From a virus: 43,476 nt of DNA. The DNA lies in the IMG/VR virus record IMGVR_UViG_3300028576_000001; one strand, 5' to 3'. Positions within the stretch are counted from its first letter, which is position 1. The number at the start of each line of letters is the position of its first letter. A model generated the notes under the pieces. It saw nothing but the letters and a program-made list of their open reading frames with translations. It searched no databases and was not told where the DNA came from. Shown one piece after another: positions 1 through 43,476 of the stretch. Made by a program: the position numbers and the translations under genes.

Positions 1-248
1 CAGCTATGGCTTACAGTGAAACATATGACTGGTTGTTTGTACCTGCTGAAACACTTGGTGACAGTGCATTACCTGTTGGTGATAACTTCTATCAGGCGGT
101 AACAACAAGCGGTTACAAAATTGCTCGGTTGGGCGGTGGTTGGTATTATGCTTCTTATGCTGGTGCTTTCTATTGGATTGTGTATGATGCCCCTTCTAGT
201 CGTGGTCGGGATATCGGCGGTCGCTTGGTGTATGTACCTGCTGCGTAA
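1..248 (+). CDS. Tail-fibre protein, 3' end. It continues the ORF that starts at 41573 and is joined through the 127-nt terminal overlap. C-terminal C-type-lectin/FGE-like domain carrying the DGR variable region.
   Basis: Same frame as 41573 once the overlap is removed (43355 = position 6). The C-terminus ...RLGGGWYYASYAGAFYWIVYDAPSSRGRDIGGRLVYVPAA has the G/W/Y/R-rich pattern typical of DGR CLec-fold targets. Stop TAA at 246-248. Confidence 0.85.
   Translation, partial: AMAYSETYDWLFVPAETLGDSALPVGDNFYQAVTTSGYKIARLGGGWYYASYAGAFYWIVYDAPSSRGRDIGGRLVYVPAA
119..234 (+). repeat. DGR variable region (VR), covering the last ~38 codons of the tail-fibre gene
   Basis: Aligns to 327-442 at a constant offset of 208 nt. 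Of 116 positions, 26 mismatch, and every mismatch lies opposite a TR adenine. The 3' boundary is uncertain and could extend to ~240 with one non-A mismatch. Confidence 0.92.
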
Positions 249-326
249 ATGTAACTTGAAAATTTAATAATATGGGCAAGCAGTCCTGACCTTTTACAGG
301 GAAAAATCACAAACAAAAGAAAGCTT

Positions 327-442
327 AATTGCTCAATTAGGCAGTAATTGGAATAATGCTTCTAATACTGGTACTTTCAATTGGAATGTGAATAATACCC
401 CTTCTAATCGTAATCGGAATATCAGCAGTCACTTAGTAAATG
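327..442 (+). repeat. DGR template repeat (TR), non-coding
   Basis: Begins 79 nt after the tail-fibre stop. Read in the VR frame it gives IAQLGSNWNNASNTGTFNWNVNNTPSNRNRNISSHLVN with 12 AAT codons, the usual AAY-rich TR design. It lies inside no ORF. Confidence 0.92.
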
Positions 443-450
443 CACAAAAC

Positions 451-474
451 AGCACCCTTGAAATACAGGGTGCT
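451..474 (+). other. Perfect 8-bp hairpin just 3' of the TR (AGCACCCT-tgaaatac-AGGGTGCT). Candidate DGR RNA spacer structure or attenuator.
   Basis: Arms 451-458 and 467-474 are exact reverse complements, followed by GTTCTATTAT. Confidence 0.5.
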
Positions 475-618
475 GTTCTATTATAAAACCATGTGAAACT
501 GCTTGCCCTGGCTCTTGCCAAAACATAAAAAGGATAATTGAACTGTATTGGTAAATTTGAAAAGTTAATTTCAAATTGAAGATTCAGTTTGATTGTGCAT
601 ACAAAGGAAGTCCATCAC

Positions 619-1701
619 ATGAAAAGACATATTCACCCACTTAATAATCAGAATTGCACCTTGTGGGAAGCAATATGTGATATGGAAAACCTGAAACTTG
701 CACACCAAAATGCGAAGAAAGGCAAAGGGTGGTATGCAGAAGTAAAGATGGTTGATGAAAACCCTGAATATTATTTGGGATTGCTTCAACAAATGATGCT
801 GAACCATACTTACAGAACTTCTGAATACAAGACCTTCATCAAAAAGGACAGCGGAAAAGAAAGGGAAATATTCAAGCTTCCTTACTTTCCTGACCGCATT
901 TGTCAATGGGCAATATTGCAGGTCATTGAACCAATTCTGATAAGGAACTTTACCAATGACACCTATTCTGCTATACCAGGCAGAGGTATTCACCAAGCGT
1001 TCACAAGGATAAAACATGCGGTTCAGAATGATGTTCCAGGTACACAGTATTGCTTAAAGCTTGATGCAAAGAAATATTACCCTTCCATTGACCACAACAT
1101 CCTGAAAGACAAATACAGGCGGTTGTTCAAGGACAATGACTTACTTTGGTTGTTGGATGAAATCATTGGTTCAACACCAGGCAACAAAGGCATACCGATT
1201 GGGAATTACCTTTCACAGTACAGTGGAAACTTTTATCTGTCATCCTTTGACCACTGGCTGAAAGAAGTGAAGGGTATCAAGTATTATTACCGTTACATGG
1301 ATGACATAGTTATTTTGTCAAATTCAAAAGAACATTTGCACCAGTTAAGAAAAGAAATTGATGAATACTTCCGCAAGGAATTGAAGCTGACCATCAAGGA
1401 AAACTGGCAAGTGTTCCCCACATTTGACAGGGGCATTGATTTTGTTGGTTACCGTATCTTTTTAGGATATTCACTGTTAAGAAAGACCACATGCAAGCAG
1501 ATGAAGGTCAAGATGGTAAAAATCAGAAAGAAAGTTGAAGGCGGTCAGGAAATGAATCATTCAGAATGGTGTTCAATCAATTCATACAAGGGGTGGTTGA
1601 TGCATTGTGACAGTTACAGATTAAGTATGAAATACATTGAACCTATTCAGAAACATGCAAATGACTATTACATCAAAAATATTAAAAGAAAGGCAGCGTG
1701 A
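619..1701 (+). CDS. DGR reverse transcriptase
   Basis: 360 aa from ATG 619, with AAAGGAAG RBS at 602-609 (the track ORF begins upstream at 589). Motifs: FPDRICQWAI, LDAKKYYPSIDH, the DGR-diagnostic GIPIGNYLSQ, and catalytic YRYMDDIVIL. Confidence 0.93.
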   Translation: MKRHIHPLNNQNCTLWEAICDMENLKLAHQNAKKGKGWYAEVKMVDENPEYYLGLLQQMMLNHTYRTSEYKTFIKKDSGKEREIFKLPYFPDRICQWAILQVIEPILIRNFTNDTYSAIPGRGIHQAFTRIKHAVQNDVPGTQYCLKLDAKKYYPSIDHNILKDKYRRLFKDNDLLWLLDEIIGSTPGNKGIPIGNYLSQYSGNFYLSSFDHWLKEVKGIKYYYRYMDDIVILSNSKEHLHQLRKEIDEYFRKELKLTIKENWQVFPTFDRGIDFVGYRIFLGYSLLRKTTCKQMKVKMVKIRKKVEGGQEMNHSEWCSINSYKGWLMHCDSYRLSMKYIEPIQKHANDYYIKNIKRKAA

Positions 1702-23492: not shown

Positions 23493-23551
23493 TTATTGAC
23501 AAAGCCTGTGTTTTCAGCATCTTGCATTTATTGCACCATAAAAAGGCGGTG

Positions 23552-23952
23552 ATGAACATGCAAAAGTTGAACATTTCATTGAAGAAAGTTGTTGGAAAGA
23601 AATACAACAAGTTTTGGAAGTTCAAAGGCAGATACAGAATTGTAAAAGGTTCAAGAGCATCTAAAAAATCAAAGACTGCTGCATTATGGTATATAACTAA
23701 TATGATGAAATATCCTGATGCAAATACCTTGGTGATAAGAAAGACTTTCCGAACAATCAAGGATTCCTGTTTCACTGAATTGAAATGGGCAATCAACAGG
23801 TTGTGTGTTCAGGAATTTTGGAAAATCACTGAATCACCGCTTGAAATGACTTACATTCCCACAGGTCAGAAGATTTATTTCAGGGGTCTTGATGACCCAT
23901 TGAAAGTCACTTCTATCACTGTTGAAGTTGGTTGCCTGTGTTGGATGTGGAT
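23552..23952 (+). CDS. terL: Terminase large subunit, exon 1 (ATPase N-terminal part)
   Basis: Walker A VKGSRASKKSKT. ...GLDDPLKVTSI...CLCWMWI ends in the Walker B strand. The reading frame runs into the intron and stops at 23992. Start ATG is 23552 or 23558, after AAGGCGGTG. Confidence 0.85.
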
Positions 23953-24818
23953 TAACATTATCGGTTCACATCATAAAAATAAACTTCTCTAATTGCTGGA
24001 ACACCCTAACGTAAAGACGAGGGCAATCAGCAGCGAAGCTACTTGACAATAATAAATGGTTATGGTATCATATACTTACGAAATACAGGTAAGGACGGTG
24101 ATACCATGAAAGAAGTCTGGAAGGACATCAAGGGATATGAGGGCTTCTACCAAGTGAGCAATCAAGGATGTGTGAAGAGCCTTGGCGGTTGGTGCGGAAC
24201 TACTCTAAGGAAAGAGAAAATCCGCTCCACAAGCCTTACGCATGACGGATATGTGAAAGTAAGGCTGATACACCAAGGAAGAGACAAGACGGCGAGAGTT
24301 CACAGATTGGTAGCAGAGGCATTCGTTCCAAATCCTGAAAGCAAAAGCACAGTCAATCACAAAGATGGAAACAAACAGAACAACATTGTTGAAAATCTTG
24401 AATGGGTTGACAGGAAAGAACAAATGGTTCACGCTTACAAGATGGGATTAAAAACTTCAAGGCTTGGTTCTGAAAATTCCAATGCAAAACTTACCGATGA
24501 ACAAGTGAAAGAAATCCGAAAACTATATGTTCCACAAAGCAAAGAATTTGGAACGGTTGCACTTGGCAAAATATACGGTGTGACAAATAGGGTAATAGGA
24601 TTGATTATAAACGGTAAGGCTTATAAAAATGTCAAGTAGAACGTTCAACGACTATCGAAAGCAGAAAAGCATCCACAAGGGTGCTTTTTTTGTTAGTAGA
24701 GTAGGGTTCAAGCGAATCCGAAACGGGAGGCACACTTCTCCGGAAGTGCGAAGATATAGTCTGCTCTATATGGAAACATATAGAGGGCAAGCGGAAGCGG
24801 CTTGCCCGTAACACAATG
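23953..24818 (+). mobile_element. Group I intron (866 nt) interrupting terL and carrying an HNH homing-endonuclease ORF
   Basis: P1: exon ATGTGGAT (23945-23952) pairs with the intron guide GTTCACAT (23964-23971), with a U.G pair at the splice site. P10: TCG (23961-23963) pairs with exon-2 CGA (24819-24821). The intron ends in G at 24818. The conserved core element AAGATATAGTC is at 24751-24761. Perfect hairpins occur at 24763-24784 and 24787-24807. Splicing gives ...CWMW-I-EEAYEI... Confidence 0.85.
24106..24639 (+). CDS. Intron-encoded HNH homing endonuclease (NUMOD4 + HNH_3 type)
   Basis: EVWKDIKGYEGFYQVSNQGCVKSL (NUMOD4). RVHRLVAEAF...VNHKDGNKQNNIVENLEW (HNH). ATG 24106 follows AAGGACGGTGA. 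GC content looks locally higher than in the flanking sequence. Confidence 0.88.
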   Translation: MKEVWKDIKGYEGFYQVSNQGCVKSLGGWCGTTLRKEKIRSTSLTHDGYVKVRLIHQGRDKTARVHRLVAEAFVPNPESKSTVNHKDGNKQNNIVENLEWVDRKEQMVHAYKMGLKTSRLGSENSNAKLTDEQVKEIRKLYVPQSKEFGTVALGKIYGVTNRVIGLIINGKAYKNVK

Positions 24819-25671
24819 CGAAGAAGCATATGAAATCATGAAAGAATCTGATTTTGACATGCTTGATGAATCCATTCGTGGTGAAGTTCCAGAAGGCTTG
24901 TTCAAACAGATAACAATGACCTTCAACCCATGGAATGAACATCACTGGATAAAGAAGCGTTTCTTTGATGCACCCCCTGACCCTGATATTCTTGCACTGA
25001 CAACCAATTACATGTGCAATGAATGGTTGGATGCAGCGGATAGAAAGGTCTTTGAAACAATGAAGAAAAACAATCCCCGAAGGTACAGGGTTGCAGGTCT
25101 TGGTGACTGGGGAATTGTTGAGGGTCTTATATTTGAGAACTGGGAAGAAAAAGCCTTTAACCTGGAAGAAATCAAAAAGATACCTGGTATCAAGTCAGCT
25201 TTCGGTCTTGACTTTGGTTACACAAATGACCCTTCTGCACTATGGTGTGGAATGATTGACCTGCAAGGTAAAACCATCTATGTGTTTGATGAAATGTATA
25301 AAAAAGGTATGTCTAATGAAGCAATTGCAAAGGAAGTCACAAATATGGGATACCGAAAGGAACGAATCAGGGCAGATTCAGCAGAACCGAAGTCAATTGA
25401 CAGGTTGCGTGATATTGGTCTTTCAAACATCACTGCTGCAAGAAAAGGAAAAGACAGTGTGAATAATGGAATTGACTTTATCCAGGACTTCAAAATTATC
25501 ATTCACCCAAGGTGTGTAAACTTCATCACTGAAATAAGCAACTATACCTGGGATACAGATAAGTTTGGAAAGAAGTTGAACATCCCTATTGATGACTTTA
25601 ACCACTTGATGGATGCAATGAGATATGCCCTTGAAGAATTTGTCAAAGGGAAGTCTTTTTCTTTTGATTAG
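24819..25671 (+). CDS. terL: Terminase large subunit, exon 2 (remainder of the ATPase plus the nuclease domain)
   Basis: EEAYEI...TFNPW... then GLDFGYTNDPSA...DSAEPKSI...HLMDAMRYAL, the RNase-H-like nuclease motifs of PBSX-type terminases. Confidence 0.85.
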
Positions 25672-32596: not shown

Positions 32597-33895
32597 ATGG
32601 CACTGGGCGGTGGTACTTTTGTAACACAAAACAAAATTCTTCCTGGCAGCTATATCAATGTAATCAGTGCAGCTTCCGCAAGTGCAGAACTGTCTGACAG
32701 GGGTATTGTTGCAGTTCCCCTTGACCTGAAATGGGGTCAGGAAGGTGCTGTCATCACAGTGGAAAAAGGTGATTTCCAAAAGAATTGCTTCAAGCTGTTT
32801 GGTTATTCCTATACTGATGATGAAATGAAGCCTTTGCGTGAAATCTTCATGAATGCTGTTAAAGTGTTTGTGTACAGATTGGGAACAGGTGTGAAGGCAC
32901 AGAACACCTTTGGAACTGCAAAACATGCAGGTACAAGGGGCAATGCAATACAGGTTGTAATTGCAACAAATGTTGATGATGCAACCAAATCTGATGTAAA
33001 AACCTTTGTTGGCGGTCAGCTTGTTGACAGTCAGACGGTTCTTACAACTGGAAAGACAGATGCACTTGCTGACAATGACTTTGTTGTTTGGAAAGCTGCT
33101 GTTGCACTTGCAAACACAGCAGGAACAGCAATGACAGGCGGTGAAGATGCAACTGTGGTTGGTGCAAATCATTCAACTGCACTGGGTGCTTTGGAAGCTT
33201 ATGCTTTCAATGTGCTTATTTGTGATTCGGATGACAACACCACAAAGGGATTGTACTTCAATTTCACAAAGCGTATGCGTGATGAAATCGGGGTGAAATT
33301 CCAGTGTGTCATTCACAAGTACACAACTGCTGACTATGAAGGTGTTGTTTCAGTTGAGAACAACACAGGCACTGAAATGGTGTACTGGGTTGGTGGTGCT
33401 TTGGCAGGATGTGCAATCAACAAATCCTTGACCAACAAGCAGTATAATGGTGAATACACTGTCAATGTGACTTACACACAGACAGAACTTGAAGCTGCAC
33501 TGCTTGCAGGAAAATTCATCTTCCATGCGGTGGGTGATTCGGTCAGAGTGCTTGAAGATATTAACTGTCTTGTCACCACAACTGCTGACAAGGGTGACAT
33601 ATTCAAGGATAATCAGACAATCAGGGTTGTTGACCAAATTGCAAATGACATTGCAACTTTGTTCAATACAAAATACCTGGGTGTTGTTCCGAATGATGCA
33701 GCAGGCAGAATCAGCCTTTGGGCAGATATTGTCAAGCACCATGAACAGTTACAGACCATCAGAGCAATTGAAGATTTCAGTGATGCTGATGTTTCTGTTT
33801 CACAGGGCAATACAAAGAAATCAGTGGTGGTCAATGATGTTGTGACTGTTGTGAATACAATGACACAGCTTTATATGACCTGCATTGTTCAGTAA
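32597..33895 (+). CDS. Contractile tail sheath protein (XkdK-like)
   Basis: MALGGGTFVTQNKILPGSYINV... is a typical sheath N-terminus. 432 aa, followed by the tube gene. Confidence 0.88.
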   Translation: MALGGGTFVTQNKILPGSYINVISAASASAELSDRGIVAVPLDLKWGQEGAVITVEKGDFQKNCFKLFGYSYTDDEMKPLREIFMNAVKVFVYRLGTGVKAQNTFGTAKHAGTRGNAIQVVIATNVDDATKSDVKTFVGGQLVDSQTVLTTGKTDALADNDFVVWKAAVALANTAGTAMTGGEDATVVGANHSTALGALEAYAFNVLICDSDDNTTKGLYFNFTKRMRDEIGVKFQCVIHKYTTADYEGVVSVENNTGTEMVYWVGGALAGCAINKSLTNKQYNGEYTVNVTYTQTELEAALLAGKFIFHAVGDSVRVLEDINCLVTTTADKGDIFKDNQTIRVVDQIANDIATLFNTKYLGVVPNDAAGRISLWADIVKHHEQLQTIRAIEDFSDADVSVSQGNTKKSVVVNDVVTVVNTMTQLYMTCIVQ

Positions 33896-35120: not shown

Positions 35121-37430
35121 TTGAATGTGGCAACTATTCAAACAGCTATAAGGCTGACGGATATGATGACTTCCCCACTGATGAATATAACACAGGCATT
35201 GAATATGACCGTCAGTGCATTTGAAACTATTGAAAACAAAGCAAATTCGGCTTTTGATGCAGCAGAACTTGACGGTGTAAGGGAAAGAATCAATGCTGCT
35301 AATATTGAACTGAATGAAGTGGTGGAAAACATCAGAAGAAACACCGAAGAACAGGAAAAGTTCAATCAATCTTTGAACACTGGTGTTTCTCACAGCAATA
35401 AACTGTTGTCATCTATAAAAAAAGCTGCTGCTGCATACTTGTCATGGAGAGCAGTTGTAAGGACATTAGACTTGTCTGATACAATGGCTTTATCCGAAAC
35501 AAGATTATCCTTGATTGTGGATGATGGTGGTTCTGTTGAAGAACTGGAAAAGAAAATATTTGCTTCTGCACAAAGAGCAAGGGCGAATTACCAAGATACA
35601 ATAGACATTGTTTCAAAGCTTGGATTGCTTGCAGGAAAAGCATTCACCAGTAATGATGAAATCATTGCATTCCAAGAGTTGATGAATAAAAACTTCATTG
35701 TTGGTGGTGCATCTGCACAGGAACAAGCTTCTGCAATGTATCAATTGACACAGGCAATGGCATCAGGAAGGCTGCAAGGTGATGAATACAGAAGCATCAT
35801 TGAAAATGCACCATTGCTTGCCAAAGCAATTGAAGATTACATGGTCAAGGTAAAAGGTGCAAAAGGAACAATGAAAGACTGGGCATCCGAAGGATTGTTG
35901 ACTTCTGATGTCATTAAGGCTGCCTTGTTCAGTTCTGCTGATGAAATTGAGCAACGGTTCAACAGCATGCCAATGACCTTTGGACAAGTTTGGACTTCCA
36001 TTAAGAACCAAGCATTGGTGCAATTCCAACCTGTACTGAAAAAGCTGAATGAAGTGGCAAATAATGAGAAATTCAACAAAATGGTCATAGGGGTTACCAA
36101 TGCACTGACTGTTGTTGCAGCGGTAGCAACTGAAATTTTTGATGTAGTTGCTTCAATTGGTTCATGGGCATATGATAACTGGTCAACCCTTGAACCTATA
36201 ATTTGGGGCATAGTTGCAGCAATGGCAGTTTGGAAGGTGGCAACATTGCTTCATGCAGCTTCTGTTGGAATTGCAGCAGCAGCCGAAGCAGGATATACAG
36301 GAATAAAAGGCATTGCAATTGGTGTAACAGCAGCATTGACTGGTTCAACCATAGCAGCAACTGCTGCACAGTGGGGATTTAATACTGCTTTGTTCTCCTG
36401 CCCTATTGTTTGGATACTTGCAGCACTTATTGCCTTGGTTGTCTTGTTTGTTATGTTTACGGAAGAAATCATGGGTGCAATCTTCTGGCTTGGCGCATTG
36501 TTCAAAAATCTTGGATTGTGGATTGCAAACCTTGGAATTGCAGCTTGGGAAGTCATAAAGAACATAGGACTTTGGTTTGCAAACTTGGGTATGTCCATTT
36601 GGGCAGGAATTAAGAATGTTGGACTGTGGTTTGCAAATCTTGGTCTTGGCATTTGGGAAGTATTGAAGGCATGTGCAAGTAATGTCATGGGTGCTTTCCA
36701 AAATGCATGGATAAATATTCAGATTGGCTTTTGGAGTGTAATCAAGGCTATTGTTGAAGGTGTTAAGACAGCCATTGAATGGTTGAATAAGATACCAGGT
36801 GTTGATATATCCACAACAGGAATTACAAATGCAGTCAATAGTTATACACAAAAGATGGCTGAACTTGAAGCTTCAAAGCATCAGTATGAAGATATTGGTG
36901 AAGCCTGGGATAGAGGTTTTAACACTTACAAATATGAAAGTGTGTCAGAAGCTTACAACACATTTGATTATGGCAGTGTAAGTGATGCATTTAATACCTT
37001 TGACACTTTTGAAGAAGGTTGGGGTTCAAGTGCATATGCAGTAGGTGCAGAAGTTGGTGCAGGAATCAGTGATTGGATAGATAACAACCTGTCAATGAAT
37101 GCACTGCTTAAAAAGTTCGGTGCAACAGCACCTGAATCAACTGCATATGACGGTACAGGCTTGGATGTATCACAGTACCTTGCTGACATAGCTGATGATA
37201 CCAACAGCATTGCAGGTTCAGTTGAATTGTCAGGCGAAGAATTGAAATATTTGCGTGACATTGCTGAAAGGGATGCTGTCAACAGGTTCACCACTGCTGA
37301 ACTTATAGTGAACTTTTCTTCTGACATTAAAGCTGCGAATTCAGAAGTGGATTTGGATGGTGTTGTTGCTTACCTTGAAGAAAAGGTCAATGAAACACTT
37401 GAAATGGCTGCGGAAGGGGTGCATGCTTAA
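35121..37430 (+). CDS. Tape measure protein
   Basis: 769 aa. Coiled-coil N-terminus, a central block of hydrophobic repeats (GLWIANLG / GLWFANLG), and position after the chaperone pair. Confidence 0.88.
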   Translation: MNVATIQTAIRLTDMMTSPLMNITQALNMTVSAFETIENKANSAFDAAELDGVRERINAANIELNEVVENIRRNTEEQEKFNQSLNTGVSHSNKLLSSIKKAAAAYLSWRAVVRTLDLSDTMALSETRLSLIVDDGGSVEELEKKIFASAQRARANYQDTIDIVSKLGLLAGKAFTSNDEIIAFQELMNKNFIVGGASAQEQASAMYQLTQAMASGRLQGDEYRSIIENAPLLAKAIEDYMVKVKGAKGTMKDWASEGLLTSDVIKAALFSSADEIEQRFNSMPMTFGQVWTSIKNQALVQFQPVLKKLNEVANNEKFNKMVIGVTNALTVVAAVATEIFDVVASIGSWAYDNWSTLEPIIWGIVAAMAVWKVATLLHAASVGIAAAAEAGYTGIKGIAIGVTAALTGSTIAATAAQWGFNTALFSCPIVWILAALIALVVLFVMFTEEIMGAIFWLGALFKNLGLWIANLGIAAWEVIKNIGLWFANLGMSIWAGIKNVGLWFANLGLGIWEVLKACASNVMGAFQNAWINIQIGFWSVIKAIVEGVKTAIEWLNKIPGVDISTTGITNAVNSYTQKMAELEASKHQYEDIGEAWDRGFNTYKYESVSEAYNTFDYGSVSDAFNTFDTFEEGWGSSAYAVGAEVGAGISDWIDNNLSMNALLKKFGATAPESTAYDGTGLDVSQYLADIADDTNSIAGSVELSGEELKYLRDIAERDAVNRFTTAELIVNFSSDIKAANSEVDLDGVVAYLEEKVNETLEMAAEGVHA

Positions 37431-39473: not shown

Positions 39474-39871
39474 TACCATCAACAAATGGTTTCCTTGCAC
39501 AGGATTTTGTGATAGAAGAACAACCAAGCAAAACATATAAAATGCATCTTGATGAAAGCATCATCCTGGGATATGCTGACAAGCTTGATGCAATGGTTCA
39601 GGTGATTTTTAGCATACTGAACACCGAAAGGTATCAGTATGTTATTTATTCATGGAACTATGGGATTGAACTTGTTGACCTTTACGGTCAACCAGTAAGT
39701 TATGTCATTCCTGAACTGAAAAGGCGAATCACAGAAGCTTTGACATGGGATGAACGAATTATCAGTGTTGACAACTTTGATTTTTCAGTGAACAAAGGAA
39801 AGATAACATGCAACTTTACAGTACACACCATATTTGGTGATATTCAAACAGAAAAGGTGGTGAATTTTTGA
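39470..39871 (+). CDS. Baseplate wedge protein (XkdS-like, gp25/W family)
   Basis: Assigned from synteny, size (133 aa) and ATGA overlaps with both neighbours. Confidence 0.6.
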   Translation: MIPSTNGFLAQDFVIEEQPSKTYKMHLDESIILGYADKLDAMVQVIFSILNTERYQYVIYSWNYGIELVDLYGQPVSYVIPELKRRITEALTWDERIISVDNFDFSVNKGKITCNFTVHTIFGDIQTEKVVNF

Positions 39872-40929
39872 TGTATGAAAATATGACTTATGAAGTCATC
39901 TTGCAAAGGATGCTTGACAGAGTGCCTGACACAATGAACAAGCGTGAAGGCAGCATCATATATGATGCACTTGCCCCTGCTGCGGTAGAACTTACCTTGG
40001 CATACTTGCAATTTGACATGGTGCTGAATGAAGCATTTGGTGACACTGCATCAAGAGATTATCTTATCAGAAGGGCAAAGGAAAGGGGTCTTACACCTAA
40101 ACCTGCAACAAAAGCAATCCTTCAAGGGGAATTCACACCTGCAAGCATTGATGTTCTGAACAAAAGGTTCAATCTTGGTTCACTGAACTATGTTGTGACT
40201 GAACTTATTGCACCAGGTATTTACAAGGTGCAGTGTGAAACAGAAGGAATAATTGGAAACCAAAGTCTTGATGACATTATCCCTATTGATTACATTGAAG
40301 GACTTGAAACAGCAAAGTTGACACAGGTTTTAATTCCAGGTGAAGATGAAGAATCAACGGAAGCTTTCAGAACAAGATACTTTGCATCATTCGGTGAAAA
40401 AAGCTATGGGGGCAATGTCACAGACTATTTGACAAAAACCAATTCCATTCCTGGGGTTGGGTCAACCAAGGTCACACCATTGTGGGATGGCGGTGGAACA
40501 GTAAAACTGACCATTCTTGATTCAAATTATGACCAGGCAACACCCACATTGATTGCATCAGTTCAAAATGCAATTGACCCGACACCACAAGGTGAAGGTT
40601 GGGGAATTGCACCTATCGGACACATTGTGACAGTTGATACAGTTGAAGAAGTGACTGTTGACATTGCTGCAACCATAACCTTTGACACTGGGTATTCATG
40701 GGCAGCACTTCAAGCACAGGCAACCGCTGCAATTGAAGCTTACCTGCTTGAATTAAGAACGGACTGGGCGAATCAAAGCAACTTGATTGTCAGAATAGCA
40801 CAGATTGAAACAAGACTGCTTGCAATTGAAGGAATCATTGATATTTCGGGAACAACCATCAACACACTGGCAAGTAATCTGACACTGACTACTTACCAAA
40901 TACCTGTGTTAGGAAGTATCACAGCATGA
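39868..40929 (+). CDS. Baseplate J-like protein (XkdT-like)
   Basis: 353 aa. YEVILQRMLDRVPDTMNKREGSIIYDALAPAAVEL is a typical Baseplate_J N-terminus. Confidence 0.8.
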   Translation: MMYENMTYEVILQRMLDRVPDTMNKREGSIIYDALAPAAVELTLAYLQFDMVLNEAFGDTASRDYLIRRAKERGLTPKPATKAILQGEFTPASIDVLNKRFNLGSLNYVVTELIAPGIYKVQCETEGIIGNQSLDDIIPIDYIEGLETAKLTQVLIPGEDEESTEAFRTRYFASFGEKSYGGNVTDYLTKTNSIPGVGSTKVTPLWDGGGTVKLTILDSNYDQATPTLIASVQNAIDPTPQGEGWGIAPIGHIVTVDTVEEVTVDIAATITFDTGYSWAALQAQATAAIEAYLLELRTDWANQSNLIVRIAQIETRLLAIEGIIDISGTTINTLASNLTLTTYQIPVLGSITA

Positions 40930-41552
40930 GCAGAGAAATAAACCTTATTGATTACCTTCCCCCATTCCTTCAAGGATACAGGGAAATGCAAGCAATTATG
41001 ACCGCTGAAAATCCCGAATTTCAAGCGGTCAGTGATGAAGGTCAGGTGGTATTGGATAACACCTTCATTCTTTACTGCAATGAAGATGGCATTGCACGAT
41101 TTGAAAGGATGTTAGGCATATATCCATTACCAAGTGACCCACTGGAAGCAAGGCAGTCAAGAGTTCTGACCAGGTGGAATGATGTTGTTCCATACACCCT
41201 GAAATCTTTTCTTTCAAAGCTTGCATCATTACAGGGGAATAACAACATTCAAATAACAATCTACAATGACCAGTACAAAATTCAAGTTGTTACACATCTT
41301 GAAAAACAGGGTCAGCAGGATGACCTGGCTTATTTGTTCAGAACAGTTCTCCCCTGCAACTTGGTTGTTGAATCAATTAACATCCTGGATGCAAAAACAG
41401 GTGCTAACATAATGTTGGGAAGTGGTATCACTTACACAAACATTGAGTTCATCACCAATGACATTAAAGAAACATTTGATGAAGTCAGTGATTTGAGATT
41501 TGCCAATGCAATCACAGGCACTGAAATAATAAGTATTGCAACAAGTATATAA
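40926..41552 (+). CDS. Tail protein (XkdU-like, DUF2313)
   Basis: INLIDYLPPFLQGYREMQAIMTAENPEFQ is the characteristic start. Confidence 0.7.
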   Translation: MSREINLIDYLPPFLQGYREMQAIMTAENPEFQAVSDEGQVVLDNTFILYCNEDGIARFERMLGIYPLPSDPLEARQSRVLTRWNDVVPYTLKSFLSKLASLQGNNNIQITIYNDQYKIQVVTHLEKQGQQDDLAYLFRTVLPCNLVVESINILDAKTGANIMLGSGITYTNIEFITNDIKETFDEVSDLRFANAITGTEIISIATSI

Positions 41553-41572: not shown

Positions 41573-43476
41573 ATGGCAGAATTTAGTTCTTTTGTAATTC
41601 AACCGAAAGGACATGCATTGATGTCAAAGCTGATTGCAGGAACTGGAACATGCAACTTTTCAGCAATCAGAACATCAAGCACAACCTACACACAGCAACA
41701 GCTTGAAGCACTGACTGCTTTGACCAACATCAAACAGTCAGCGGATATTTCAAGCATCAGCAGAATCAACAATGTTTCTGTGAACATCAAAGGTGCTTTG
41801 AACAACACAGCACTTGTGACTGGGTACACAGTCAACACCATTGGTCTTTATGCAATTGACCCTGATGAAGGTGAAATCCTTTATGCAGTGGCAAGGGCAA
41901 TTCAGGCAGGATATATGCCCCCTTACAATGGTATCACATCAAGTGGAATCTTATTTGACTTTGTGATTACTGTTGGGAATGCAGAAAATGTTACTGTTAT
42001 AGTCAACCCTGCTGCGGTTGCAACACAAGCAGATGTCATTGAAATCAATGCAAAAATTGCTGACCTGGCAGGTTATGTTGGTTACACAGATGATGACATT
42101 GTGGGTGTTGAAGTTGATTATGCAAACAGAACATTCACAAGACTTGCAGGTGCAGTTGGAAAAACACCTGGTGCAGACTTTGACAATATCCTTGCTTTTG
42201 GTGGCAGAAGAAGATGTAATCTTGCAGATAATGGAACAGTTAATGCTTACTATGGTGAACCAGGATACATTGAAGATGGTTCAAATGGTCAGGTGATGGT
42301 TGAACAACCAAAGTTCTATTACAAGGTTGTTCCGCTGAAAATGGAAAAGAATGATGAAGTTGAAATTGCATCAGTAAAATTTGACACAGGTGCAACATCA
42401 GCAGGAAACATCACAATCACATTGAATGGCACAGCATTCAATGTTGCGGTTGCAAATGGTGACACAGCAACAGCGGTTGCAGGTAAGGTCAGAGGAACAA
42501 CCTTTGCAGGTTGGACAACTGGTGGAAGTGGTACAACCGTAACCTTCACAGCAACCAAGGTTGGTGTGAGGTCAGCAACCACATTCACAGACACTGGAAC
42601 AACCGGTGTGACTGCAACTGTAACAAGAACACAGGTTGGCTATATTGGCAAAGGTTTCAAGCTGCGTAAAGCAAGATACTATGTCAGCATGACCAAAAAA
42701 GCAGGATTCAAGGTTCATCCTGCTTTTGTGAAAAACGGTGTTGAAGTCAATAAGATTTACCTGTCAGCTTATGAAGGTTCACTGTATGATGTCAGTGCTT
42801 CTGCTTATATCCTGGATGATGCACAGGTTGCAGACTTCACAGCAACCATAGGTGACAAGCTTGCTTCCAGGGCAAATACAAAACCAATTTCAGGAAACAC
42901 ACAAGACCTGACAAGAAGAAAATGCGGAATCCTTGCTGAAAATCGTGGAACTGGTTGGTCACAACAATATGCAGCAACTGCTGCTTGTACTCAACTTCTT
43001 TTCACAGTTGAGTATGCAGCACTTAACAGTCAGACTGCTATTGGAAAGGGTGTTGTTGACAAAGCAAGTGGAACAGGAAATGAATCTGAAATCACAGGTG
43101 CAACAACATTGCTTGGAAATGCATCAGGTATGGCAGCAGGAACAAATGGTTTGGTTTCCATTACTTACAGAGGTGAAGAAAACTTTTGGGGTAATATTTA
43201 CAAGTTTACAGATGGCATGAACATCTATTGTGATATTGCAAACAGTGTTCATGACTTGTATGTTGCTGACAACACCTTTGCAGAAAGTACACAGGCAAGT
43301 CCATATGCTAATGCAGGAATTACCTTGGCAACAAGAAGCGGATATGTTTCAGCTATGGCTTACAGTGAAACATATGACTGGTTGTTTGTACCTGCTGAAA
43401 CACTTGGTGACAGTGCATTACCTGTTGGTGATAACTTCTATCAGGCGGTAACAACAAGCGGTTACAAAATTGCTCG
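41573..43476 (+). CDS. Tail-fibre protein, 5' part. The ORF is open to the window end and continues at 128-248 in the circular molecule, about 674 aa in total. It is the DGR target gene.
   Basis: ATG 41573 follows AAAGGTGGAAAATATC. There is no stop in this frame to 43476, which is why the ORF track omits it. The N-terminus MAEFSSFVIQPKGHALMSKLIAGTG... is tail-collar-fibre-like. The frame matches ORF 6-248. Confidence 0.88.
   Translation, partial: MAEFSSFVIQPKGHALMSKLIAGTGTCNFSAIRTSSTTYTQQQLEALTALTNIKQSADISSISRINNVSVNIKGALNNTALVTGYTVNTIGLYAIDPDEGEILYAVARAIQAGYMPPYNGITSSGILFDFVITVGNAENVTVIVNPAAVATQADVIEINAKIADLAGYVGYTDDDIVGVEVDYANRTFTRLAGAVGKTPGADFDNILAFGGRRRCNLADNGTVNAYYGEPGYIEDGSNGQVMVEQPKFYYKVVPLKMEKNDEVEIASVKFDTGATSAGNITITLNGTAFNVAVANGDTATAVAGKVRGTTFAGWTTGGSGTTVTFTATKVGVRSATTFTDTGTTGVTATVTRTQVGYIGKGFKLRKARYYVSMTKKAGFKVHPAFVKNGVEVNKIYLSAYEGSLYDVSASAYILDDAQVADFTATIGDKLASRANTKPISGNTQDLTRRKCGILAENRGTGWSQQYAATAACTQLLFTVEYAALNSQTAIGKGVVDKASGTGNESEITGATTLLGNASGMAAGTNGLVSITYRGEENFWGNIYKFTDGMNIYCDIANSVHDLYVADNTFAESTQASPYANAGITLATRSGYVSAMAYSETYDWLFVPAETLGDSALPVGDNFYQAVTTSGYKIA
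43350..43476 (+). repeat. 127-nt exact duplicate of bases 1-127 (circular-assembly overlap)
   Basis: Direct comparison of both ends. A length of 127 matches a common maximal assembler k-mer. Confidence 0.9.

Follow-up and report, generated by a model that had tools for sequence, protein, structure and literature searches.

The phage genome held in the IMG/VR virus record IMGVR_UViG_3300028576_000001 (43,476 nt, analysed over its whole length and here called the window) contains an element that we identify, with high confidence, as a diversity-generating retroelement (DGR) acting on the tip of the tail fibre. Its parts follow one another on the plus strand: a variable region (VR) within the 3′ end of the fibre gene, a non-coding template region (TR), a structured spacer RNA and a reverse transcriptase (RT) (Table 1). 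An earlier sequence-only reading of this DNA had claimed that the phage diversifies its receptor-binding fibre tip, and this claim is supported by the position of the VR, the fold of the domain in which it lies, the type of RT and the diversification observed among relatives.

The repeat pair carries the strongest signal. An automated ungapped comparison of VR and TR at an offset of 208 nt runs over 116 positions with 0 gaps and 26 mismatches, which reproduces exactly an alignment previously made by hand. All mismatches are opposite TR adenines (19 A>G, 7 A>T, 0 A>C) and none is opposite a C, G or T, so the proposed adenine-only pattern was borne out by a comparison in which any other mismatch would have surfaced. 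Among the 39 TR adenines, 26 differ in the VR; the probability of all differences falling on adenines by chance is 1.4e-16 (hypergeometric). The translations formerly given for both repeats are likewise correct, with 12 in-frame AAT codons in the TR. The TR is non-coding and adjoins the RT gene, and the VR sits at the 3′ end of its target open reading frame (ORF), with 78 nt between VR and TR and 176 nt between the TR end and the RT start. An adenine-tolerant scan of both strands of the whole window found no second VR, the next-best site having at least 36 non-adenine mismatches.

The RT itself is of the DGR type. A 360-aa RT on the same strand, some 175 nt downstream and with the motifs IGNYLSQ and YMDD, had been predicted, and it is there: the ATG at 619 is preceded, 8 nt upstream, by the ribosome-binding site AAGGAAG (604–610), and the two motifs, which conform to the [I/L/V]GxxxSQ and YxDD of the DGR clade, lie at residues 194 and 226. 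A closer kinship to other RT clades would have spoken against the assignment. By sequence comparison, its best solved relative is the DGR RT of Bordetella phage BPP-1 (bRT; PDB 8ub7), with an E value of 2.4e-28 versus 7.5e-18 for the best group II RT. R82 and I194 of the window's RT align with bRT R74 and I181, two residues that one report describes as promoting adenine mutagenesis (PMC7826257).

On which protein does this cassette act? The fibre ORF looks cut off at position 1 of the window because the contig is circular: 127 nt are identical at 1–127 and 43350–43476, forming a direct terminal repeat, and the record is a circular assembly with a unique length of 43,349 bp and an overlap in the style of k = 127. 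Rebuilt across this repeat (41573–43476 joined to 128–248), the gene encodes 674 aa and is the last of the tail genes, after those for the baseplate wedge and a Mu gp48-like protein; the VR, read earlier as its last ~38 codons, indeed covers residues 633–670. The fibre N-terminus matches PHROG 7037 (tail fiber) and the C-terminus PHROG 5302 (tail protein). The fibre has no sequence-level match in Pfam, NCBIfam or the PDB, and it was fold comparison alone that revealed the target domain. Its C-terminal 234 residues, which have 230 metagenomic homologues, were modelled with AlphaFold2 from a 66-sequence alignment (mean pLDDT 90.7, pTM 0.87). The only significant PDB fold matches to this model are three chains of TaqVP, the DGR variable protein of Thermus aquaticus (E 7e-6 to 4e-5, probability 1.0), followed by weaker ones to Mtd variants and formylglycine-generating enzyme (FGE). 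Matches in BFVD comprise tail(-collar) fibres of many uncultured phages, including crAss-like ones, together with TvpA-like and sulfatase-modifying-factor-like (FGE-like) entries. The C-type-lectin/FGE fold that had been anticipated for the fibre tip is thereby predicted, and as modelled the C-terminal domain is the C-type-lectin-like scaffold known from DGR targets.

Table 1. Features of the DGR cassette and of the tail genes upstream of it, in window coordinates
Feature	Position	Strand	Remarks
Variable region (VR)	119..234	+	Fibre residues 633–670; 116-nt gapless match to TR
Truly hypervariable part of VR	127..213	+	11 AAT-templated codons plus CAA- and ATC-templated codons
IMH-like invariant GC-rich 3′ VR block	216..234	+	GGCGGTCGCTTGGTGTATG; same in 14 related VRs
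Template region (TR)	327..442	+	Non-coding, 39 adenines, upstream of RT
IMH*-like 3′ TR block	424..442	+	AGCAGTCACTTAGTAAATG; differs from VR block at 6 adenines
TR-side helix strand	440..447	+	AUGCACAA; RNAalifold consensus; predicted cDNA start just 5′
Clade-specific hairpin	452..475	+	AGCACCCU...AGGGUGCU; 8–11 bp, minimum-free-energy fold
Structured spacer RNA, Rfam RT-17 (RF03020)	504..604	+	49.8 bits versus gathering score 40.4
Spacer-side helix strand	593..600	+	UUGUGCAU; followed by conserved ACAA and the RT ribosome-binding site AAGGAAG (604–610)
DGR reverse transcriptase	619..1701	+	360 aa, Pfam RVT_1, PHROG 1423
Tail-fibre gene, 5′ part	41573..43476	+	ORF rebuilt across terminal repeat
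Tail-fibre gene, 3′ end	1..248	+	Stop codon 246–248
Sheath	32597–33895		Upstream of fibre gene
Tape measure	35121–37430		Upstream of fibre gene
Baseplate wedge	39868–40929		Upstream of fibre gene
Mu gp48-like	40926–41552		Upstream of fibre gene

The same arrangement recurs widely. A scan of IMG/VR with the RT yielded 79 loci, whose VR/TR pairs were called with a purpose-written adenine-tolerant diagonal scan that recovers the window's own pair exactly (327–442/119–234, 26 adenine and 0 other mismatches). The order VR-TR-RT was found in ~62 further loci (62 of the 64 with a detected pair), each pair having 10–31 adenine mismatches and 0–2, rarely 4, at other bases; the loci without a detected pair are those truncated upstream. 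Prophages of Chryseomicrobium, Enterococcus timonensis and Clostridiales show the pattern as well. The TRs of different lineages differ at many non-adenine sites, and every VR tracks its own TR, as repeated TR-to-VR information transfer predicts; even the sole TR difference between the window and its relative L002 (G/T) is mirrored in their VRs. Three loci with an identical TR (L033, L034 and L035) are identical over the 400 nt upstream and differ at 0–1 sites over the 600 nt downstream, while their VRs differ at 16–21 positions, all at TR adenines. VR differences are likewise concentrated at TR adenines in L066/L067/L068 and in L056/L058, and within the window's own clade (L003/L004, RT 90% identical) the flanks are identical and all 3 VR differences fall on adenines. 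Such near-identical relatives show natural DGR activity in the family.

For the phage in the window, one further assembly was found, a 36,995-nt contig from JGI metagenome 3300028570 (Ga0255341_1001258) that is 100% identical over the ~8.8 kb compared, VR included. An adenine-masked VR/TR pattern found no other VR alleles of the same phage in IMG/VR; in JGI metagenomes it found only two contigs, from ~88%-identical phages, and exact-protein look-ups for VR alleles returned the same phage with the same VR. Position 127, where the circular contig is broken, is precisely the VR's first variable base, and the break could stem from mixed VRs among the source reads; the JGI 3300028570 assembly passes through the VR unbroken. 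Contigs of related strains often end in or near the cassette, at window-equivalent positions 200, 463, 467, 499 and 619 (up to 636), and contig ends at the fibre/DGR region are consistent with strain-level mosaicism or heterogeneity. Among short contigs, L164, L166–L168, L170, L172 and L174–L176 end at the cassette or where the fibre gene begins (window 41569).

A homologous fibre is also encoded, unannotated, at the end of the record (46742–47830) of the cultured Clostridium phage CS266P3 from sewage (L162, OP172777.1), with a VR/TR pair (14–119, 252–357) that has 28 adenine-only mismatches. A tblastn search found no RT homologue anywhere in this 47.9-kb genome, and the pair is either an orphan left after RT loss or one served in trans.

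Do all 26 mismatches reflect diversification? A column-by-column alignment of 14 related TR/VR pairs was used to sort them. The adenine columns of AAT codons, of a CAA codon (127/128) and of an ATC codon (213) show two to four bases across the 14 related VRs, and the columns within 127–213 are polymorphic also among phages with an identical TR. About 15 of the 26 mismatches are genuine diversification, belonging to 11 AAT-templated codons and one CAA-templated codon; counting the ATC codon too, the randomisable codons correspond to ~1.7e14 peptides. The remaining 11 mismatch positions are invariant: 131, 135, 159, 165 and 189 carry G in every related VR whose TR has A, as 216, 219, 223, 227 and 230 always do, and 231 is always T (the neighbouring 232 is always A). 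The VR thereby ends in a GC-rich block (GGCGGTCGC...), the TR version of which has A at six places. Since this block includes synonymous sites (TTA>TTG, GTA>GTG) and an AAT>TAT codon that stays constant throughout, we take it to be a fixed difference and not selected mutagenesis. Judged from its sequence, it would be the initiation of mutagenic homing (IMH) site that closes the VR, its differing TR counterpart being IMH*, and it is kept in at least 14 relatives. Hence, the proposal that the 26 mismatches are products of mutagenesis holds for their location at adenines, but 11 of the positions are invariant in relatives and not all differences can be diversification.

The invariant positions point to a broader pattern in how TR adenines are read, seen in 62 non-redundant TR/VR pairs of the family. 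Position 1 of AAT codons is A in 37% of VRs, G in 23%, T in 27% and C in 13%; position 2 is A in 52%, G in 19%, T in 11% and C in 18%. At TR adenines before G, the VR base is G in 84% and A in 16%, with 0% T/C (n = 129), and before C it is G in 59%, A in 37% and T/C in 3% (n = 158). Position 2 of a diversified AAC codon reads 17 A, 12 G, 0 T and 1 C, and TR adenines at 4-fold-degenerate sites give 74% G, 26% A and 0% T/C (n = 43). Within groups sharing one TR, non-AAT sites are all G or A/G only, while AAT sites vary. In E. coli, according to work on BPP-1 bRT from 2026, the error spectrum depends chiefly on the base 3′ of the template adenine, and dC is misincorporated most often. Because the 3′ base governs bRT errors in this way, the A/G-only spectrum at certain adenines is plausibly intrinsic to the RT. 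Two accounts of the invariant G were ruled out: protein-level selection alone, as the G excess occurs also at synonymous sites, and non-transfer alone, as the internal invariant sites are flanked by variable ones.

The spacer between TR and RT matches the Rfam family RT-17, which occupies the same place in 12 relatives and was seen only in Avd-less loci. More distant relatives that bear Avd carry RT-14 or, in one case, Phage_DGR instead. RT-14 is present in L078 and L094–L151, which are metagenome-assembled genomes (MAGs) of Clostridia where it often lies downstream of the RT, and Phage_DGR in L121, a Sulfurimonas MAG. In Weinberg et al. 2017, RT-10 was the only motif tied to the BPP-1 DGR, and the authors speculated that further motifs of the RT series belong to other DGRs; several of the orphan "RT-n" families of Rfam now appear to be lineage-specific DGR spacer RNAs.

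RNAalifold, run on 12 spacers, returned the RT-17 stems together with a long-range helix between TR 440–446 and spacer 594–600. This helix takes ~20 distinct forms across lineages, with compensatory changes between its strands, and in every form ACAA or CAAA comes next and then the RT ribosome-binding site. The TR and spacer strands read, for instance, ATGCACAA/TTGTGCAT, ATGCATTT/AAGTGCAT, ATGCAAA/TTTGCAT and TATGTGCATA/TATGCACATA, or, in further loci, ATGTGGG/CCCACAT, TATGGATT/AATCCATA and GTATATACT/AGTATATAC. Helices formed within a locus are longer than those formed between loci (mean 7.5 versus 6.0, Mann-Whitney P = 2.7e-6), and the cassette combines an RT-17 spacer RNA with a covarying TR-spacer helix. 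BPP-1 offers a counterpart, in which seven base pairs join TR 118–124 to Sp 50–56 and the cDNA is primed from the 2′-OH of Sp A56, starting at TR G117, just 5′ of the duplex. By analogy, priming would occur at about U600/A601, and A439 or a base close to it would be the first one copied. A strong hairpin that directly follows the TR (452–475), with no clear T-run behind it, occurs only in the closest relatives; it is absent from the RT-17-bearing loci L010, L014, L016, L018 and L025 and therefore does not belong to the core of the DGR RNA. A pairing of TR 424–432 with 493–503, suggested by the single-sequence fold, was rejected, as by eye it is not kept in L010, L011 and L014. Terminator consensus matches in positions 1–2400 do not exceed chance.

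Commonly, DGRs carry the accessory gene avd, whose product is found with ~74% of them and is essential in BPP-1. A distant relative of the window's locus (L078, RT 31% identical) has a 117-aa basic ORF of the four-helix type between VR and TR, and a jackhmmer search seeded on it gave an Avd profile comprising 59 sequences from distant relatives. With this profile, an Avd was recovered beside the RT in 58 loci, none of which has an RT more than ~40% identical to the query RT; loci with RTs of 39% identity or above yielded no Avd. Scans of small ORFs against Pfam and NCBIfam returned no Avd among the best 25 of 38 and 25 of 69 matched families, and the next ORF downstream of the RT encodes a conserved phage protein of acidic character (PHROG 18126). 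The comparison with BPP-1 drawn by the sequence-only reading consequently stands as regards the DGR signature and is incomplete because Avd is missing. A cassette of this kind is compatible with the recognised accessory-less architecture A1. Wu et al. 2018 found 29% of DGRs to be without accessory genes, described one avd-less RT lineage and inferred Avd-independent homing (PMC5758913).

How might such a cassette work? The transcript of TR and spacer, possibly extending into the RT, would fold so that the 3′ tail of the spacer (593–600) pairs with the 3′ end of the TR (440–447). Beside this helix, the RT would prime itself and copy the TR towards its 5′ end, faithfully at C, G and U and with errors at adenines. 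The cDNA would then replace the homologous VR (119–234) upstream of the invariant GC-rich IMH-like block (216–234), and randomisation of 11 AAT-templated codons and two others would alter receptor specificity at the fibre tip. In this scheme we infer where priming occurs, where the cDNA begins and ends, how far the transcription unit extends and that the element of this phage is currently active. A joint proposal, which we advance tentatively and consider possible but not the likelier outcome, is that RT-17 is the spacer RNA of Avd-less phage DGRs, with a covarying TR helix, and that these elements have a context-dependent adenine error spectrum. The helix between the RT-17 3′ tail and the TR may then position the self-priming site without Avd, and, if the proposal is true, the TR encodes "hard-wired" A-to-G positions (A before G/C) beside randomised ones (A before T/A).

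Several observations weigh against a functioning DGR of this design. The second assembly of the same phage (JGI 3300028570) has an identical VR; a scan of positions 1–2400 revealed no sigma-70 promoter-like site upstream of the TR beyond chance level; and the Avd profile finds no Avd in the window (best E = 2.2 with all filters off). To our knowledge, no Avd-less DGR has been dissected biochemically. The predicted cDNA start 5′ of 440 would place the invariant block within the first ~16 nt of the cDNA, and therefore either the cDNA 5′ end would not be transferred or the true start would lie further upstream. Finally, a GC-rich inverted repeat, hairpin or cruciform after the VR is not supported (z-score +0.86); Wu et al. 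2018 (PMC5758913) recorded such an inverted repeat for just 34% of DGRs. Some of these points would suit a cassette that was recently silenced or is very rarely used, leaving the fibre tip effectively fixed in this phage: two independent assemblies share one VR, Avd and a promoter consensus upstream of the TR are missing, and decay occurs in the family, as CS266P3 has kept VR and TR but lost the RT. Yet the RT ORF is intact with all its catalytic and DGR-specific motifs, conservation extends to the RT-17 RNA and the TR-spacer helix, and the 0 non-adenine mismatches mean that homing postdates any point mutation in TR or VR. L003 and L004, in the closest clade, have diversified between otherwise identical contigs, and contigs break at the first variable VR base or at the cassette, as population heterogeneity predicts. 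We therefore regard silencing as unlikely and the DGR of this phage as probably active at present.

Far less credible still is the idea that a repeat arising by chance or duplication came to lie beside an unrelated RT from a group II intron, a retron or a defence system, a reading that we practically dismiss. It can point to NCBIfam, where the best curated match of the RT is group II RT/maturase, but at 118.7 bits against a cut-off of 300 (Drt3a reaches 70 of 200 and retron 47 of 235), and NCBIfam has no DGR-specific RT model, so that its top RT match is uninformative. Neither intron RNA domains nor retron msr/msd were found, RT-17 being the sole Rfam match in the whole window; moreover, the adenine-only pattern, the structural kinship to bRT, the family-wide VR-TR-RT synteny and the DGR variable-protein fold of the target all contradict an accidental neighbourhood. 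Within the DGR interpretation, one might take all 26 differences, the 3′ block and the isolated adenines included, for random adenine mutagenesis, given that every one of them is at a TR adenine. This we hold to be very improbable: the 11 invariant positions are constant in all 9–14 related VRs where the TR has A and include TTA>TTG, GTA>GTG and the unvarying AAT>TAT codon; in groups sharing a TR they stay G while AAT sites vary; and 4-fold-degenerate adenines never yield T or C, whereas AAT codons show all four bases.

The genome around the cassette, with gene identities taken from Pfam, NCBIfam and PHROG matches, is best explained as the complete circular genome of a contractile-tailed temperate phage with a Bacillota host. 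Upstream of the fibre gene, besides the tail genes of Table 1, are genes for a tube protein, an XkdN-like chaperone, a LysM protein and a sheath initiator, and for head and packaging functions (portal, major head protein, small terminase and PBSX-family large terminase). On the 3′ side of the RT follow a conserved 80-aa phage protein, two CD1375-family mini-proteins, a holin and an Amidase_3+SPOR lysin, and beyond these, on the minus strand, a tyrosine integrase with helix-turn-helix repressors. Sheath, tube, chaperone, terminase, baseplate and integrase agree with the former description of a temperate PBSX-like phage. The G+C content is 38.6%. The nearest genomic copies of this RT type reside in Chryseomicrobium palamuruense (71%), Enterococcus timonensis (66%) and Clostridiales MAGs, and the nearest from a cultured phage in Psychrobacillus phage Perkons (57%), from which we conclude that the host is a member of the Bacillota. 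Of the suggested gut or anaerobic Firmicute host, the Bacillota part holds; nothing found supports a gut origin.

Two side observations concern other genes. The large terminase gene is split, with Terminase_3 positions 3–104 in 23522–23992 and positions 104–200 plus Terminase_3C in 24802–25671, and an HNH/NUMOD4 homing-endonuclease ORF (24043–24639) lies between the halves. This looks like a mobile intron or the insertion of a free-standing endonuclease; no group I/II intron scored above the Rfam threshold at this site. The CD1375-family mini-ORFs (1970–2083 and 2121–2249; 37 and 42 aa; NCBIfam NF040910, PHROG 1382) stand in tandem in the interval between the DGR and the holin/lysin genes.

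Tens of thousands of DGRs have already been catalogued, and the worth of this one lies in particulars. For annotation, it marks the receptor-binding tip of the phage as hypervariable. As a clean natural example of the accessory-less class, it would allow a function to be assigned to the orphan Rfam family RT-17, and its covariation-backed TR-spacer helix predicts where the cDNA starts. The family also provides a natural data set on context-dependent adenine misreading that complements the 2026 experimental map of BPP-1 bRT. Minimal DGRs of two parts, RNA and RT, are attractive for engineered targeted mutagenesis.

Compared to the BPP-1 element (mtd-avd-TR-brt), the window's cassette is alike in diversifying a fibre tip and in having the VR as the 3′-terminal part of the target and the TR upstream of a DGR-clade RT; adenine-specific mismatches, an invariant GC-rich IMH-like block at the 3′ boundary and conservation of the residues equivalent to R74 and I181 are shared as well. 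It differs in lacking Avd, in a VR-TR gap of only 78 nt, in having no GC-rich inverted repeat after the VR, in its spacer RNA (RT-17 in place of Phage_DGR/RT-10) and in the randomised codon, which is AAT where BPP-1 has AAC. Furthermore, its target domain is nearer to TaqVP than to Mtd, and its host is Gram-positive. With architecture A1 (target-TR-RT; Wu et al. 2018, PMC5758913) it shares the gene order and the absence of avd, HRDC, MSL and CH1, whereas a spacer RNA and a TR-spacer helix are not described there.

Roux et al. 2021 (PMC8144416) placed tail-targeting phage DGRs, from phages of Firmicutes, Bacteroidetes and Proteobacteria, in three of six global DGR clades; the virus clades 1, 4 and 6 of that study, like the DGRs of Faecalibacterium prophages, resemble the present element in having tail-protein targets with VR domains of the C-type-lectin fold. 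The DGRs of crAss-like phages are similar in their RTs, to which that of the window is 39–50% identical, and in the fibre fold, which matches their tail fibres. Unlike these and the Faecalibacterium DGRs, however, the window's nearest cultured RT is that of phage Perkons and its nearest prophages are in Bacilli. TaqVP (PDB 5vf4) is, to judge from the model, also a C-type-lectin-fold relative of the fibre tip (query-normalised TM score 0.56), but shares ~15% sequence identity with it, gives no sequence-level match and is a cellular protein, not a phage fibre. Set beside these systems, the element is an ordinary phage DGR, modestly new in its link between RT-17 and the lack of Avd, its covarying helix and its context-restricted pattern of errors.

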